Shown here in pieces: positions 826-11,559 of a stretch of 11,635 bases of DNA. This DNA is from a virus (Duplodnaviria > Heunggongvirae > Uroviricota > Caudoviricetes). The translations under genes and the position numbers were made by a program. Each line of letters begins with the position of its first letter. Position 1 is the stretch's first letter. Location of the stretch: the IMG/VR virus record IMGVR_UViG_2639763139_000004, one strand, 5' to 3'. The notes beneath the pieces were generated by a model. It searched no databases. It had not been told where the DNA came from and saw only the letters and a list, made by a program, of their open reading frames with translations.

Positions 826-900
<75 letters not shown>

Positions 901-903
901 ATA

Positions 904-979
<76 letters not shown>

Positions 980-981
980 GC

Positions 982-1058
982 TGGCCCACCACCGAGGACT
1001 CGAACCTCGCACCGTCAACTTAGAAGGTTGATGCTCTATCCGGATGAGCTAGTGGTGG
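982..1058 (-). tRNA. tRNA-Arg (anticodon UCU, reads AGA)
   Basis: Reverse complement CCACCACTAGCTCATCCGGATAGAGCATCAACCTTCTAAGTTGACGGTGCGAGGTTCGAGTCCTCGGTGGTGGGCCA. Perfect acceptor, D, anticodon and T stems; loop CUUCUAA; encoded CCA; unusual C1:G72. Confidence 0.8.
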
Positions 1059-1059
1059 T

Positions 1060-1136
1060 TGGTGGCCCTTGCTGGACTTGAACCAGCGACCTGGCGATTA
1101 TGAGTCGCTCGCTCTGACCAACTGAGCTAAAGGGCC
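1060..1136 (-). tRNA. tRNA with CAU anticodon, probably tRNA-Ile2 (ileX/ileZ-like, AUA decoder) rather than Met
   Basis: Reverse complement GGCCCTTTAGCTCAGTTGGTCAGAGCGAGCGACTCATAATCGCCAGGTCGCTGGTTCAAGTCCAGCAAGGGCCACCA. Anticodon loop CUCAUAA; overall similarity to E. coli ileX from memory. Ile versus Met identity cannot be settled from sequence alone. Confidence 0.8.
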
Positions 1137-2804: not shown

Positions 2805-3092
2805 TCAATCCTGCTCAAGATTGTAGATGAGTTTATTCTTCAGCAAAAGCAGAAAACCAGCCTTAAAACCAATCTTTTTCAAAACCCGTAATGATGTGAC
2901 AAATTCGTCCTCACGCAAAATAAAACCGTCCGTCAGAAGTCCATTACAAAAATAAAATAACACAGCACCGCTCTTCCTTTGTTGAGATTGCAAACATCTA
3001 ATGCGGCAATGGCTGACAATCGCTCCATTCTCAACGCGCACAGCATAGAGGCCATTTTCACTAAAAATTTCACGCAATTCTTCGATTTTCAT
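2805..3092 (-). CDS. Hypothetical protein, 95 aa
   Basis: ATG 3090-3092 with GGAAGGA upstream. Sits between hok and the nin-like genes. No family recognised. Confidence 0.45.
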   Translation of the reverse strand: MKIEELREIFSENGLYAVRVENGAIVSHCRIRCLQSQQRKSGAVLFYFCNGLLTDGFILREDEFVTSLRVLKKIGFKAGFLLLLKNKLIYNLEQD

Positions 3093-3341: not shown

Positions 3342-3497
3342 TTACTTCCTGGATTCGTAGTCTACGAAGACAGCGACCTCCGTCTGGCCGGTTCGGATTC
3401 GTACCTCACAGAGGTCTTTCCTCGTTACCAGTGCCGTCACTATGACGGTTAAACAGATGACGATCAGGGCGATTAACATCGCCTTTTGCTGCTTCAT
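3342..3497 (-). CDS. hok: Hok/Gef-family type I toxin (51 aa)
   Basis: MKQQKAMLIALIVICLTVIVTALVTRKDLCEVRIRTGQTEVAVFVDYESRK is near-identical in pattern to HokD/RelF from memory. ATG 3495-3497 preceded by AAGGAG. An in-frame upstream extension to 3554 is noted as a possible mok-like coupling reading frame. Confidence 0.85.
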   Translation of the reverse strand: MKQQKAMLIALIVICLTVIVTALVTRKDLCEVRIRTGQTEVAVFVDYESRK

Positions 3498-3668
3498 AGC
3501 CTGCTTCTCCTTGCCTTTCGGCATGTAAGAGGCTAACCTACATGTGCAAAGCATGAAATTGGCCTCAGATTAATGTTAAGCGTCTTGCCGGACGCGTAAT
3601 GTTAACTGGGGCTTTTCTCTATCTGCCTTTTGGTGTTCATGCCTGAAGCAGATAGCCTCAAGCACCCG

Positions 3669-5409: not shown

Positions 5410-6156
5410 CTACTTAACAACCCTCGAATGGCTAACATTCGGACGCCAGCTCTCCCAGTTAAAATTCACCCAGCGCCCGCCGTTCATGACCATGCGATCC
5501 ATCACCCGCTCGCCGAGCAATGTTTTCATCACCTCATAGTTCAGGTTTGTCAGCATCCCCACGCTGCGCATCGACGCTGTCCGGCGATCAACAATCTGGT
5601 GCAGCACCACCTGCTCGTTTTTCGTCTCGCGCTGAATGCCAATTTCATCAAGAACCAGCAGATCCACTTCGCACAGCTCCCGCAAAAATTTTTCGCCTGA
5701 CTGCCCGTCGTCATAGCTGGCGTGCAGGGCGCTCATAACATCAGCCACGGTAACCACAATCACTGTCTGACCGTCTTTCAGCAGGCGATTCCCGATAGCT
5801 GCCGCTAAGTGATTCTACCCGGTATCAGGTTTTCCGCTGAACGCAAAATTTGTACACCCGGTCATCAGTTCATCGGCGATGGATTTCGCCTGGCTTAACG
5901 CGTATCGCTGGCCGTCGTTCTGCACCTGGTAATTCGCAAACGAGCATTTACGGTGCAACGGCTGGATGCCTGAGCGATTCAGAATTTTTTCCACCCGCAA
6001 CTGGCGATTCAGGCGGTTGATCTCCTCGCTACGTTTCTGGCCTTCAGCAAGTTGCCACTCGCGCCACTCCGCTACCGTTCTGAATGGGGCGGTTACATGT
6101 GGCGGGGTCAGTCGGCGGATGCGTTCCAGAACGCCGCCTGTCGCAATATTTTTCAT
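5410..6156 (-). pseudogene. DnaC-like helicase loader interrupted by an in-frame amber codon at the Walker A lysine
   Basis: Two listed ORFs (5815-6156 and 5410-5763) are in the same frame. Translation reads ...FAFSGKPDTG-TAG-NHLAAAIGNRLL...DLLVLDEIG..., with TAG at 5815-5817 where the P-loop Lys is expected. Walker B is present downstream. Confidence 0.7.
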
Positions 6157-7011: not shown

Positions 7012-7434
7012 TCAATGCACTACGACAGAATCGCCGGGCGACCCACCACCGCTGAAATGTGCTTTCCGGTAAACGGCCTGGACAGCATCATCATGCGCAT
7101 CAATTGCCGTACTCAACGCTTCCTGCGCCGCCAGTAATGCACGGCGTTCCAGGGTATCGAAGATACAGAGTCGGTGACGCAGCTCACGCGGAAGAATTGC
7201 CAGAACCGCAGGGATCAGTTTCTGAATTTTTTCCCTTTGCGCTTTCGTTTCACCTTTCAACCAACGGTGATAGATATTCTGCTGATTGTTCCAGTCCTTG
7301 CCTGGTACCAGAGACAATTCGCCGCCCCCCTGCCGCAGATATTCTTCAGTAATTGCGTTAGCGACCCACGCCTGCCCTTTTTCGGCTGCCAGGGCTAACA
7401 GCACTGATTCGATGTGCTCATGCCTGATTTTCAT
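7012..7434 (-). CDS. YdaT-like (CII-position) prophage protein, 140 aa
   Basis: ATG 7432-7434 overlapping the end of the Cro-like gene. Sequence MKIRHEHIESVLLALAAEKGQAWVANAI... matches the Rac YdaT family from memory. Occupies the cII position. Confidence 0.7.
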   Translation of the reverse strand: MKIRHEHIESVLLALAAEKGQAWVANAITEEYLRQGGGELSLVPGKDWNNQQNIYHRWLKGETKAQREKIQKLIPAVLAILPRELRHRLCIFDTLERRALLAAQEALSTAIDAHDDAVQAVYRKAHFSGGGSPGDSVVVH

Positions 7435-7645
7435 GAATCACCTTCCCAGGTCGTTTTGCCTTACGATATTCGTCATAAACTTTGGGGTCGTACTGAAGTT
7501 CCCCGCCAGATGCCTCTTGCAGGCGCATCGCGCGACCTTCAGGAACCAGTTCCCCCCATGCAGCAATGCTTGCCAGCCTAACTCCTGCGGCATTGGCAAG
7601 CTTTGTTTTGCTGCCAAAAAACGCTATAGCATCAATTTTCAACAT
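7418..7645 (-). CDS. dicC: DicC/YdaS-like Cro-type regulator, 75 aa
   Basis: ATG 7643-7645 preceded by TAAGGAG. Divergent from the repressor gene. Sequence pattern matches DicC from memory. Confidence 0.75.
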   Translation of the reverse strand: MLKIDAIAFFGSKTKLANAAGVRLASIAAWGELVPEGRAMRLQEASGGELQYDPKVYDEYRKAKRPGKVIHENQA

Positions 7646-7653
7646 ATCGAGCT

Positions 7654-7713
7654 CCTTAGATTTTCCTAAGGAAACTAGACCGTAGAGAAACCTAAGTCAA
7701 GAAAAATTAGAAT
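7654..7713. promoter_or_regulatory. Right-operator-like region with two copies of a 14-bp operator motif and divergent promoters
   Basis: Palindrome CCTTAGATTTTCCTAAGG at 7654-7671 and minus-strand CTTAGGTTTCTCTA at 7683-7696. TAGAAT at 7708-7713 lies 8 nt before the repressor ATG, which has no SD. Confidence 0.5.
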
Positions 7714-7721
7714 TCCCTAAT

Positions 7722-8129
7722 ATGAAAAACGAAACCTTCGGTGCTCGCCTCTTACATAGGCGTAAAAAATTAAAACTGTCTCAGGCCGCATTAGGTAAGC
7801 TGGTCAAAGTGGCTCACGTAACAATTTCTCAATGGGAAAGAGATGAAACACAGCCGGCGGGGAAAAGATTATTCGCACTGAGCCAAGCGCTTCAGTGCTC
7901 ACCGACTTGGCTTCTTTTTGGGGATGAAGATAAACAACCAGGCGAACCGATCCCGGATAATCAGCCAGCCATTCTGACAGAAGATCAAAAAGAGTTACTT
8001 CAACTGTTCGACGCACTGCCTGAGTCAGAGCAAAAGGCCCTGTTGTCAGAGATGCGTGCTCGAGTTGAAAATTTCAACAAACTTTTTGAAGAACTACTCA
8101 AAGCTCGCAAAAGAAGCGCAAACAAATAA
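7722..8129 (+). CDS. dicA: DicA-like HTH repressor, 135 aa, no S24 peptidase domain
   Basis: ATG 7722, TAA 8127-8129. HTH segment LSQAALGKLVKVAHVTISQWERDETQP and tail LFALSQALQCSPTWLLFGDEDKQ...NFNKLFEELLKAR match DicA from memory. Confidence 0.85.
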   Translation: MKNETFGARLLHRRKKLKLSQAALGKLVKVAHVTISQWERDETQPAGKRLFALSQALQCSPTWLLFGDEDKQPGEPIPDNQPAILTEDQKELLQLFDALPESEQKALLSEMRARVENFNKLFEELLKARKRSANK

Positions 8130-8201
8130 TCCCCTTTTTTCTCCACACCCTGTAATAAAAAGCACAAACTTTCAAACACTTGTGTTTTTTACATCAAAAA
8201 G

Positions 8202-8254
8202 CTTAGGTTTTTCTACACAAAAATCTTGACCACCCTCCTTAGGTTATTCTAAAT
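8202..8254 (+). promoter_or_regulatory. Left-operator-like region: two more copies of the operator motif flanking a candidate promoter
   Basis: CTTAGGTTTTTCTA at 8202-8215 and CTTAGGTTATTCTA at 8239-8252. TTGACC at 8226-8231 with a weak -10 around 8249-8255, upstream of the ydfA-like gene. Confidence 0.45.
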
Positions 8255-8331
8255 TTTATTCATCAAGACACCGCACGGTGTTCTCAGCAAACAGTTCCGC
8301 TACCCCGGCGTTAAGGGGAAATGGGGTCAAC

Positions 8332-8487
8332 ATGAATACTATCGATCTTGGCAACAACGAATCTCCGGTGTACGGCGTGTTCCCCAACCAGGACGGCACA
8401 TTCACCGCCATGACGTATACCAAAAGCAAAACGTTTAAAACCGAAGCTGGCGCACGTCGTTGGTTGGGAAGACATTCAGGTGAGTAA
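8332..8487 (+). CDS. ydfA: YdfA/YdaF-like small protein (DUF1391-type), 51 aa
   Basis: ATG 8332 with AAGGGGA upstream. MNTIDLGNNESPVYGVFPNQDGTFTAMTYTKSKTFKTEAGARRWLGRHSGE; first gene after the repressor, as in the dicB operon. Confidence 0.7.
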   Translation: MNTIDLGNNESPVYGVFPNQDGTFTAMTYTKSKTFKTEAGARRWLGRHSGE

Positions 8488-8692: not shown

Positions 8693-8933
8693 ATACCATG
8701 CGCATTGACTGAATTCGCAAACAAAAACAGACGCGCGATACCCGGATAGTCGGTCTGCATAGTCAGATATCTGGCTGCGAATTTGATAAATATCACCGCC
8801 CTTTTCGGAAACATAAGTTCCGTCCGGGAGTTGATTATACGAACCATCTCCATGGGGGATCGTTCTCCTGAATCCTAGTGAGAGCATATATTTATGAAGC
8901 CCTTCGTAATCCTCTGGCTCAGTGGATTTGCCC

Positions 8934-9839
8934 CTATATTTCCAGACATCTGTTATCACTTAACCCATTACAAGCCCGCTGCCGCAGATATTCCCGTGGC
9001 GAGCGATAACCCAGCGCACTATGCGGATGCCATTCGTTATAATGCTCGAACGCCTCTGCAAGGTTCTTTGCTGCCGTTAACCCGTCTGGTTTGGGCATGA
9101 TACTGATGTAGTCACGCTTTATCGTTTTCACGAAGCTCTCTGCTATTCCGTTACTCTCCGGACTCCGCACCGCCGTGTTCTTCGGTTCAAGTCCCAACAT
9201 CCGGGCGAACTGGCGTGTTTCATTAGCCCGGTAGCATGAACCATTATCCGTCAGCCACTCCACTGGAGACGACGGAAGATCGTTGCCGAAGCGGCGTTCC
9301 ACCGCTCCCAGCATGACGTCCTGTACTGTTTCACTGTTGAAGCCGCCGGTAGTCACCGCCCAGTGCAGTGCCTCACGATCACAGCAGTCCAGCGCGAACG
9401 TGACACGCAGTCTCTCTCCGTTATCACAGCAGAACTCGAACCCGTCAGAGCACCATCGCTGATTGCTTTCTTTCACGGCCACTCTGCCTGTATGTGCCCG
9501 TTTCGATGGCGGTACAGCAGGTTTTCGCTCAAGCAACAGCGCATTCTGGCGCATGAGCCGGTAAACACGTTTGGCATTGATCGCAGGCATACCATCAAGT
9601 TCTGCCTGTCTGCGAAGCAGCGCCCATACCCGACGATAACCATACGTGGGCAGCTCTCCGATAACATGGTGTATACGGAGAAGCACATCCGTATCATCAG
9701 TGTGACGACTGCGGCGGCCATCCATCCAGTCATCGGTTCGTCTGAGAATGACGTGCAACTGCGCACGCGACACCCGGAGACAACGGCTGACTAAGCTTAC
9801 TCCCCATCCCCGGGCAATAAGGGCGCGTGCGCTATCCAC
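8934..9839 (-). CDS. insD: IS2 transposase OrfB (InsD), made as an OrfAB fusion by -1 frameshifting
   Basis: 301-aa frame with integrase-core motifs. Slippery heptamer A AAA AAG at 9839-9845 (minus) sits at the InsC/InsD overlap. Confidence 0.9.
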
Positions 9840-10162
9840 TTTTTTGCCCGTCCATATTCAACGGCTTCTTTGAGGAGTTCATTTTCCATCGTTTTCTTGC
9901 CGAGCAGGCGCTGGAGTTCTTTAATCTGCTTCATGGCGGCAGCAAGTTCAGAGGCAGGAACAACCTGTTCTCCGGCGGCCACAGCAGTAAGACTTCCTTC
10001 CTGGTATTGCTTACGCCAGAGAAATAACTGGCTGGCTGCTACACCATGTTGCCGGGCAACGAGGGAGACCGTCATCCCCGGTTCAAAGCTCTGCTGAACA
10101 ATTGCGATCTTTTCCTGTGTGGTACGCCGTCTGCGTTTCTCCGGCCCTAAGACATCAATCAT
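9797..10162 (-). CDS. insC: IS2 OrfA (InsC), 121 aa
   Basis: ATG 10160-10162; sequence [41 protein letters not shown]... is a typical IS3-family HTH OrfA. Confidence 0.9.
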
Positions 10163-10474
10163 CTGTTCTCCAATGACTAGTCTAAAAACTAGTATTAAGA
10201 CTATCACTTTTTAACATTGATGCAGTCTCTTTGAGAGCTGACATCGCTAATACATCACTTGCTCACTCTTCTTATTGTTGGGGTATTCAGATTATACAAA
10301 TTTCTTGTTGTTGGGGAATAACAGGAACCACCTCGCCTGACGTAGTTAAAAGCAGGCACACAACGCGAAATGACGCGGCGGTAAGTATGGCGGAGTTATT
10401 CCTTCCCCGTTGAGGACACCGGGTTGTCAGGTTGACCATACGCTTAAGTGACAACCACGCCACAACACTCCATG

Positions 10475-10530: not shown

Positions 10531-10826
10531 AAAGTGAATTTTGTGATGCGGTGAATGCGGCTGAGCGCACGCGGAACAGTTAAAAAGCGATTAGTTCCCA
10601 CGTATCGGGTGGTTATGGGTTTCCCTGTATCCGGCGTTAATTGTTAACTGGTTAACGTCACCTGGAGGCACCAGGCACCGCATCAACAAAGTTCACTTCG
10701 GTGATGAAAGGTAAGAGAAAATGTTGAATGTAGCTATTGAAAACCAGAACGGGTGGAATTATAGTGCATCTGCACCTCATAAAACGGGGGCCGGGCGTGG
10801 AAACCCGAACGTTACTCGAGCGCATA

Positions 10827-10848
10827 GCCGCGCTGAAGCGGTTTTTTT
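10827..10848 (+). terminator. Hairpin plus T7 in the leader upstream of the Rha-like gene
   Basis: AGCCGC gctgaa GCGGTT followed by TTTTTTT (10842-10848). Lies inside the rejected N-terminal extension of the Rha ORF. Confidence 0.35.
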
Positions 10849-11017
10849 ATGCGTAATGCACAGCTCCATTCAAATTATGGTGGGATGTGCAGGGCAGTCG
10901 CAAGACTGGCCGGGTTCTCGAGTGACCGGTATTTCCACCCCTGTACGTCTCACCACCCTTATGGTCGTGGAAAACCTCGGTGGTGAGTTAATTAACTTAT
11001 CACTCGAGGATGCCATC

Positions 11018-11559
11018 ATGGCTACTATCCCTGCCCTTTCTCACCCTGACGTAACCATCGAAAACGGTCGCGCTGTCACTACGTCTGTTGCGGTTGCAGA
11101 GTTCTTCCACAAACGACACGACAATGTGTTACGTGCCATCGCAAATACTGAATGCTCACCTGAATTTAACGCCCTCAATTTTGAGGACGTCACCTACACC
11201 GACACCAAAGGCGAAAAACGCCCAATGTACCAAATCACCAAAAACGGCTTCGTTTTCCTGGTGATGGGCTTCACTGGGAAAAAAGCCGCTGCATTCAAAG
11301 AGGCCTACATCGCTGATGTTCGACCGCATGGAGGCAGAACTGCACCAGAATAATACCCCGTCCGCTGACAAGATGATTCCGGGTAACGGTCGCACTCTGG
11401 TTGTGCACTTCGACGAACACGGCAATATCAGATTCACCGAAACTGTTCCTGACGGTGCACTGGTCTGTACCCTGGATACTTTCCAGTTTTATCTGGAAAA
11501 ACAGGGGTGGGCTCTTGTAAACCGGAGCGCAATTAAAAATATGACCGTAGAGCAGCTGC
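11018..11559 (+). pseudogene. Rha-family regulatory protein gene, frameshifted near 11318 and cut at its 3' end by IS2
   Basis: ATG 11018 preceded by GAGGA. Frame 1 gives ...VAVAEFFHKRHDNVLRAI...MYQITKNGFVFLVMGFTGKKAAAFKEAYIAD then VRPHGGRTAPE*. The Rha-like continuation FDRMEAELHQ... is in the +1 frame from 11319 and runs into the IS2 end at 11560. Confidence 0.55.

Follow-up and report, generated by a model that had tools for sequence, protein, structure and literature searches.

The repeated motif surrounding the repressor gene of this prophage very probably represents the operators that DicA and DicC share in a Qin-type lambdoid immunity switch, as comparison with related loci suggests. 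The DNA analysed here, called the window and taken at its whole length of 11,635 nucleotides, is a Qin-like lambdoid E. coli prophage. Over this region it shares 99.4% identity with strain FDAARGOS_943, and at least 80% of the region occurs in 489 of 5,426 complete genomes. To the left of dicC lie ydaT, replication genes, nin-region genes, hokD/sok and a Q-like antiterminator gene, and to the right of dicA lie ydfA and IS2. The two regulator genes are the following.

7418..7645, minus strand: dicC-like Cro gene, 75 aa, 75% identity to K-12 DicC, P22_Cro family (Pfam)
7722..8129, plus strand: dicA-like repressor gene, 135 aa, 62% identity to K-12 DicA, N-terminal HTH_3 domain (Pfam)

We first present the motif itself. 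A scan for CTTAGGTTTNTCTA allowing at most two mismatches gives four matches, all near the repressor gene and none elsewhere in the 11.6-kb window, while 0.16 matches are expected by chance and none of 200 dinucleotide-preserving shuffles contains four or more. The four copies described in the earlier note are therefore all present:

7655-7668, plus strand: match with two mismatches
7683-7696, minus strand: match with no mismatch
8202-8215, plus strand: match with no mismatch
8238-8251, plus strand: match with one mismatch

A repeat search run independently of the motif scan recovers the same family. When the four copies are aligned, the left half CTTAG is invariant, and a T-rich spacer of 6 bp separates it from a right half starting with CTA, so that the copies read as 20-bp pseudo-palindromes. 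The putative operator unit is accordingly longer than the 14-mer that had been proposed: the 14-mer is a real motif, and it forms the core of the 20-bp pseudo-palindrome TCCTTAG-N6-CTAAGGA, which we take as the functional unit. Searching with the core TTAG-N6-CTA gives five sites in 7640-8260 (between 7656 and 8252) and one other in the window, the chance expectation being 0.64 matches per whole window; with a relaxed core score the same interval has five matches against 0.34 expected, and the maximum over 500 shuffles is three. The five candidate operators, named after their counterparts in K-12 or lambda, are the following.

7653..7672, unstranded: Oc-like candidate operator TCCTTAGATTTTCCTAAGGA, a perfect inverted repeat with 7-bp arms and a 6-bp spacer
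7679..7698, minus strand: Om-like candidate operator GACTTAG-GTTTCT-CTACGGT, 10/14 half-site matches
7704..7723, unstranded: Oa-like candidate operator AAATTAGAATTCCCTAATAT, core TTAG-N6-CTAA at 7707-7720, the fifth site
8200..8219, plus strand: OL2-like candidate operator AGCTTAGGTTTTTCTACACA, 3' end 6 bp upstream of the -35
8236..8255, plus strand: OL1-like candidate operator TCCTTAGGTTATTCTAAATT, 11/14 half-site matches

The fit to the palindrome is uneven, with OL2 and Om agreeing at only 9-10 of 14 positions, and a search of 8130-8330 for a third OL-like operator gives no core score of 7 or above. Three promoters and a stem-loop complete the anatomy of the region.

7672..7700, minus strand: dicC-like promoter (early-right, PR-like), read from the sequence by alignment with K-12 TTGACT-17-TATCTT
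7708..7724, plus strand: dicA-like promoter, -10 TAGAAT at 7708-7713, predicted start A7720, ATG at 7722
8156..8191, plus strand: stem-loop and T-run after dicA, AAAAAGCACAA-N12-TTGTGTTTTTT, -9.2 kcal/mol, z=-3.0
8226..8255, plus strand: PL-like (dicBp-like) promoter TTGACC(8226-8231)-18-TAAATT(8250-8255), from a consensus promoter scan

The consensus promoter scan found the PL-like promoter and did not report those of dicC and dicA, the former because its -10 matches only 3/6 positions, and both were placed by homology with K-12. The dicC-like promoter has its -35 TTGACT at 7700-7695, a 17-bp spacer, its -10 TAGTTT at 7677-7672 and a predicted +1 at G7665. The intergenic region between dicC and dicA is 76 bp long and holds three sites, with centres at 7662.5, 7688.5 and 7713.5, that is 26 and 25 bp apart; the two sites claimed there before are both present, while the one at 7704-7723 had been overlooked. 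The palindrome CCTTAGATTTTCCTAAGG at 7654-7671 extends to perfect 7-bp arms at 7653-7672, and this Oc-like site adjoins the -10 and covers the predicted +1 of the dicC-like promoter, spanning about -8 to +13. It lies at ATG-69, the same offset as in K-12, and is the positional homolog of K-12 Oc TTGTTAGTCATAACTAACAA; none of the 21 distinct upstream variants departs from its CCTTAG and CTA. The Om-like site overlaps both promoters, at the -35 and spacer for dicC and at the -35 region for dicA, and is nearly invariant among close relatives, although the overlapping -35 TTGACT could account for part of this conservation. The Oa-like site takes in the dicA -10 TAGAAT and the predicted +1 and reaches 2 nt into the ATG. 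In addition, Oc provides, through the right arm of its palindrome (CTAAGGAG), the dicC-like Shine-Dalgarno sequence AAGGAG (7657-7652, minus strand).

The palindromes might also act as RNA, for example through an Oc hairpin sequestering the dicC Shine-Dalgarno, and the minus-strand RNA of 7646-7672 would indeed form a structure of -8.5 kcal/mol (z=-3.0) whose stem includes the Shine-Dalgarno. However, the dicC start predicted from homology to the mapped K-12 start, G7665, falls inside the palindrome and leaves its 5' arm untranscribed, for which reason we rejected an RNA-level role of the Oc palindrome, and the other four sites are not hairpins; we consider this explanation extremely improbable.

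For the repressor gene, TAGAAT is followed by 8 nt and then by the ATG at 7722, with no Shine-Dalgarno or GGAG-like sequence upstream, just as the earlier note described; the -35 is poor. The suggestion of a leaderless mRNA in that note gains support from homology. In K-12 the dicA transcript start is mapped 3 nt upstream of the ATG, and dicA is among five leaderless E. coli mRNAs (Romero et al.), so a leaderless mRNA is already known for this gene. The K-12 hexamer TAGCAT is followed by 6 nt and then by the mapped start, which is exactly 7 nt after the hexamer; since TAGAAT here is 1 nt closer to the ATG, the start is predicted at A7720, giving an essentially leaderless mRNA with a 2-nt leader. 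In each of the 24 family loci compared, a TANNNT hexamer precedes the ATG by 6-9 nt and a usable Shine-Dalgarno is lacking. The dicA and dicC promoters are arranged back-to-back with predicted starts about 55 bp apart, and their polymerase footprints therefore overlap.

On the other side of dicA, the earlier note had placed the second pair of copies at a candidate promoter, and the pair indeed flanks and overlaps TTGACC-18-TAAATT, which is the sole plus-strand promoter-like match in that intergenic region. The OL2-like site, upstream of the -35, has an invariant core and variable flanks, its positional homolog in K-12 being ATGTTAGCTATAGCATACAA, and the OL1-like site occupies the spacer and -10 of the PL-like promoter, whose predicted +1 is about A8262, inside a conserved CATCAA. 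The centres of the two sites are 36 bp apart, about 3.4 helical turns, so that cooperative binding is not obviously favoured. Between dicA and this promoter, the A/U-rich stem-loop at 8156-8191 with its 12-bp stem is likely an intrinsic terminator insulating dicA from the PL-like promoter, and distant relatives keep a stem-loop after dicA through different stem sequences, e.g. ATCCGTTT/AAACGGAT. Downstream follows ydfA (DUF1391) at 8332-8487. ORFs for an InsD-like protein of 301 aa and an InsC-like protein of 136 aa, at about 8900-10230 of the window, presumably represent an IS2-like insertion, which breaks the PL-like operon after about 8.9 kb, just past ydfA and the next small ORF. No Rfam match to DicF and no dicB were found in the window, and the closest complete relative (L002) is also without an annotated dicB.

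The positions and sequences of these sites match those of the E. coli K-12 Qin prophage, and the sites in the window are therefore homologs of experimentally studied operators. The Qin dicA-dicC immunity region, with Oc, Om, Oa and the dicBp operators, was first described by Bejar et al. 1986, according to the citation in PMC10448788, and the older work as summarised by Ragunathan et al. 2023 (PMC10448788) has operators at dicA-dicC and at dicBp and a DicA without the Ala-Gly cleavage bond. K-12 Oc TTGTTAGTCATAACTAACAA is TTGTTAG-N6-CTAACAA, a 20-bp inverted repeat; it overlaps the -10 of the dicC promoter mapped by 5'RACE, and DicA bound there represses dicC and activates dicA (PMC3441716). 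In K-12 we find TTAG-N6-CTAA at Oc (ATG-69), at Oa (ATG-19) and at two OL positions, stop+34 and stop+69, around the dicBp TTGACC; three operators are mentioned at K-12 dicBp (PMC10448788), and two sites are seen here. The two loci thus share the gene pair and its orientation, the 20-bp operator with 7-bp arms, 6-bp spacer and TTAG...CTAA core, the placement of the sites with respect to the -10 of dicC, the ATG of dicA and the PL-like promoter, a dicA without Shine-Dalgarno and with its -10 just before the ATG, ydfA downstream, and a Rem homolog beside hokD. They differ in the half-site, which is TCCTTAG here and TTGTTAG in K-12, and in DicA, which is 62% identical and has a helix 2 starting with SQA instead of TQR. 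The intergenic region is 7 bp shorter here, and the dicC Shine-Dalgarno therefore lies inside Oc, whereas in K-12 it lies outside; and the PL-like operon, broken by IS2, is without dicF or dicB within the window.

To obtain an overall view of the relatives, we assembled loci from three sources: GTDB genomes (19), phage records (4) and IMG/VR (80). The close variants, which share the immunity type of the window, amount to 21 distinct sequences upstream and 45 downstream. In them CCTTAG, CTA and the OL cores over their full length vary little or not at all, and changes cluster between the cores; positions 8231-8237 and 8256-8260, beside OL1, differ in 20-70% of the close variants. The covariation table covers 11 representative loci from at least six lineages (among them Escherichia coli, E. 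albertii, E. ruysiae, Citrobacter, Rahnella, Symbiopectobacterium and a Klebsiella phage), while distant loci with other half-sites (TTGA and TTAT types), namely L007, L009, L011, L010, L014, L016 and others, were left out of it; the best palindromes picked automatically in those loci were irrelevant and were rejected. The motif scan of related prophages that had been proposed finds TTAG-N6-CTAA sites at matching positions in the 11 representatives, and the layout Oc, Oa, OL2, OL1 recurs in all of them, with Oc at ATG-68 to -70, OL2 ahead of the -35 and OL1 another 35-36 bp downstream. Oa, as TTAG-N6-CTAA at ATG-18/-19, is present in 10 of the 11, the remaining locus (L013) having a degenerate TTAG-N6-CGAA.

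Within a locus, the base just 5' of TTAG changes in concert and tracks helix 2 of DicA. Where helix 2 starts with SQA or SQS, there is C at both Oc arms (ccTTAG...CTAAgg) and at the OL1 left arm (tcc, ctc, aac), and OL2 has C in the window and in L025 (agc); where it starts with TQR, Oc reads tgTTAG...CTAAca and G stands at the same position in OL1 and OL2. The sole exception to this C/G rule in the OL left arms is OL2 of L022, aatTTAA. The OL1 of the window, TCCTTAGGTTATTCTAAATT, and that of the E. albertii locus L003, TTGTTAGGTTATTCTAAATT, differ only at the two specificity positions. Helix 3 (AHVTISQWE) and the helix-turn-helix of DicC are almost identical between C-type and G-type loci. 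Such a pattern is the one expected if Oc, OL1 and OL2 are DicA sites with an inner core common to DicC. The flanks of Oa show no covariation with DicA, and Oa is therefore likely a DicC-preferred site. Sequence anatomy, positional homology, conservation and covariation are all observed for this allele itself.

These data also bear on the view that the repeats are conserved promoter or architectural sequence, i.e. T-rich spacers, -35 and -10 elements or module junctions, and not protein-binding sites. In its favour, Om overlaps TTGACT, OL1 overlaps a -10, Oa contains the -10 TAGAAT, and the operator region is AT-rich and recombines as a module. Yet the core also occurs at places that need no promoter element, ahead of the -35 (OL2) and past the +1 (Oc), promoter function explains neither the symmetry of the palindromes nor the C/G change that Oc, OL1 and OL2 undergo together within each locus, and in K-12 DicA binds Oc sequence-specifically in vivo, a single base change abolishing the binding (Yun et al. 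2012, PMC3441716). We regard this view as very improbable. A different possibility is that the sites are operators for one regulator only, e.g. for DicC at all five with DicA at Oc alone; the motif family would then not be the DicA regulon assumed in the earlier note. The in vivo assay in K-12, in which DicA bound Oc and neither Om nor Oa on its own (PMC3441716), speaks for it, as does the K-12 DicC ChIP-seq, with the strongest binding on either side of dicA and a palindromic motif TT(A/C/T)G...C(G/A/T)AA (TTNG...CNAA), and the Oa flanks without DicA covariation fit it too. On the other hand, deletion of dicA in K-12 derepresses dicBp 22-fold while deletion of dicC has no effect on it (PMC10448788), and the specificity base of OL1 and OL2 tracks DicA helix 2 while the DicC helix-turn-helix is nearly unchanged between C- and G-type loci. 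We judge a single regulator to be unlikely, and operators shared by DicA and DicC remain the preferred reading.

With shared operators, the switch might work as follows. Each 20-bp pseudo-palindrome would be read by a repressor dimer, and DicA would bind best at the perfect palindrome Oc, over the dicC -10/+1, and at OL1, over the PL-like spacer and -10, thereby silencing both early operons. The weak dicA promoter would yield the essentially leaderless mRNA, and DicA at Oc would favour this promoter by clearing away its dicC competitor, through contact with RNA polymerase, or in both ways; from the back-to-back arrangement with overlapping footprints we infer that the removal of the dicC promoter plays a part. 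The Cro-like DicC would recognise the common TTAG...CTAA core and, on Oa over the dicA -10/+1, would turn dicA off, making the switch bistable. In this scheme, several elements are carried over by analogy from the K-12 homolog: that DicA binds Oc, represses dicC and dicBp and activates its own gene, where the dicA and dicC transcripts start, that DicC binds on either side of dicA, and how Rem acts. What we infer for this locus is the order of affinities, the preference of DicC for Oa and the mechanism of activation. The K-12 DicA/DicC pair is a bistable switch independent of RecA (PMC10448788).

The earlier note had further suggested an OR/OL-like logic with a short repressor lacking a RecA-cleavable domain, and this agrees with the DicA and DicC homologs, the K-12-matching sites and the missing S24 domain. 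Actually, the 135-aa repressor has no Pfam match to Peptidase_S24 and matches HTH families only; its residues 2-69 match the N-terminal DNA-binding domain of P22 C2 (E=1e-21), and its C-terminal part is helical. Without an S24 domain, induction would therefore proceed via an antirepressor or repressor instability and not via RecA cleavage, and a Rem homolog is present in the window:

2805..3092, minus strand: Rem homolog, 95 aa, 66% identity to K-12 Rem, E=3e-29

It adjoins hokD/sok (3342-3667), as rem does in K-12, where Qin Rem is an antirepressor that derepresses dicBp 165-fold (PMC10448788). By analogy, the Rem homolog is a candidate antirepressor of the DicA-like repressor, through which induction may occur, and the Rha-family ORF running to 11353 is a candidate for a second one. 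This ORF (Phage_pRha) is at 10721-11353 on the plus strand, and Rfam gives gathering-level matches to isrK at 10772-10848 and to C4 antisense RNA at 10873-10960, both on the plus strand and directly upstream of the Rha-family ORF, an arrangement that resembles the immI-like c4/ant antirepressor module of P1. A Pfam Phage_ASH match to residues 14-109 of the same ORF coincides with the isrK and C4 RNA genes, and because it overlies them this 'protein' match may be translated RNA-coding DNA.

Compared with lambda OR/OL, the locus is alike in its tripartite operator, which separates the divergent repressor and cro genes, and in carrying more operators at the leftward early promoter; sites common to repressor and Cro, autoactivation of the repressor and a leaderless repressor mRNA (cI from PRM in lambda) would be further likenesses. 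Unlike in lambda, the repressor is without S24 and RecA-mediated cleavage and only two OL-like sites are evident, and the proteins and operator sequences are unrelated. The divergent starts of lambda are about 80 bp apart, versus about 55 bp here. With P22 immC it shares the N-terminal domain of C2, which is homologous to that of DicA, the P22_Cro family of DicC and half-sites ending in AG; however, operators in P22 measure 18 bp around a 4-bp centre (consensus ATTTAAGATATCTTAAAT) versus 20 bp around a 6-bp centre here, and C2 has a cleavable C-terminal domain. Short prophage repressors under antirepressor control, of the Gifsy GfoR/GfhR type or Qin DicA with Rem, are likewise small HTH proteins without an autocleavage domain, and in the latter case the likeness includes the Rem homolog of the window.

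The architecture of the switch is already known from K-12, and the locus is a new allele whose operator is one specificity base apart. Our analysis adds a fifth site, defines the operator as a 20-bp unit, assigns the three promoters and brings out the covariation of one base with one residue. Tentatively, and with rather less than even confidence, the locus may represent a distinct immunity specificity in the DicA family, in which the base before TTAG, C in this locus and G in Qin, would be read by the helix-2 residue two after the conserved Gln (Ala/Ser versus Arg), while DicC would read the shared TTAG...CTAA core only. If so, co-resident heteroimmune DicA prophages would have private repressors and partly cross-acting Cro proteins, and the one-base, one-residue rule for DicA-family repressors could help to predict which co-resident cryptic prophages, some of them with toxic dicB/dicF/kil, are cross-regulated. 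Otherwise the work places operators, three promoters and likely transcript starts for a common E. coli prophage immunity type, with little import beyond annotation.

Besides the switch, a few features of the window are reported here. The leader of the PL-like transcript at 8262-8320 (plus strand) is conserved far beyond the operators, and is also found in L001 (1940-2008), L007 (2018-2092), L015, L022, L024 and L099-L105. It contains a hairpin ACACCG-CA-CGGTGT at 8268-8281, a conserved spacer TCTCAGCAAACAGTTCCGCTA and a second hairpin CCCC-GGCGTTAA-GGGG at about 8303-8318, the latter with compensatory stem changes among loci as judged by eye (CCCTG/CAGGG, GCCT/AGGC, GCCG/CGGC, CCG/CGG). RNAalifold on a MAFFT alignment of the leader gives a 4-bp stem only and does not capture the hairpin that covaries by eye, and Rfam E-value searches of 7600-8400 return chance-level matches only; the leader hairpins may be a nut-, put- or processing-type RNA element. 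The DnaC/YdaV-like replication gene at 5410-6156 (minus strand) is present as two ORFs, 5410-5763 and 5815-6156, while it is a single 747-bp gene in L002, which suggests a frameshift and a defective prophage. In addition, a cluster of four tRNA genes at 829-1136 (minus strand) follows the gene for the Q-like antiterminator, an arrangement common to many lambdoid and Stx-type prophages.
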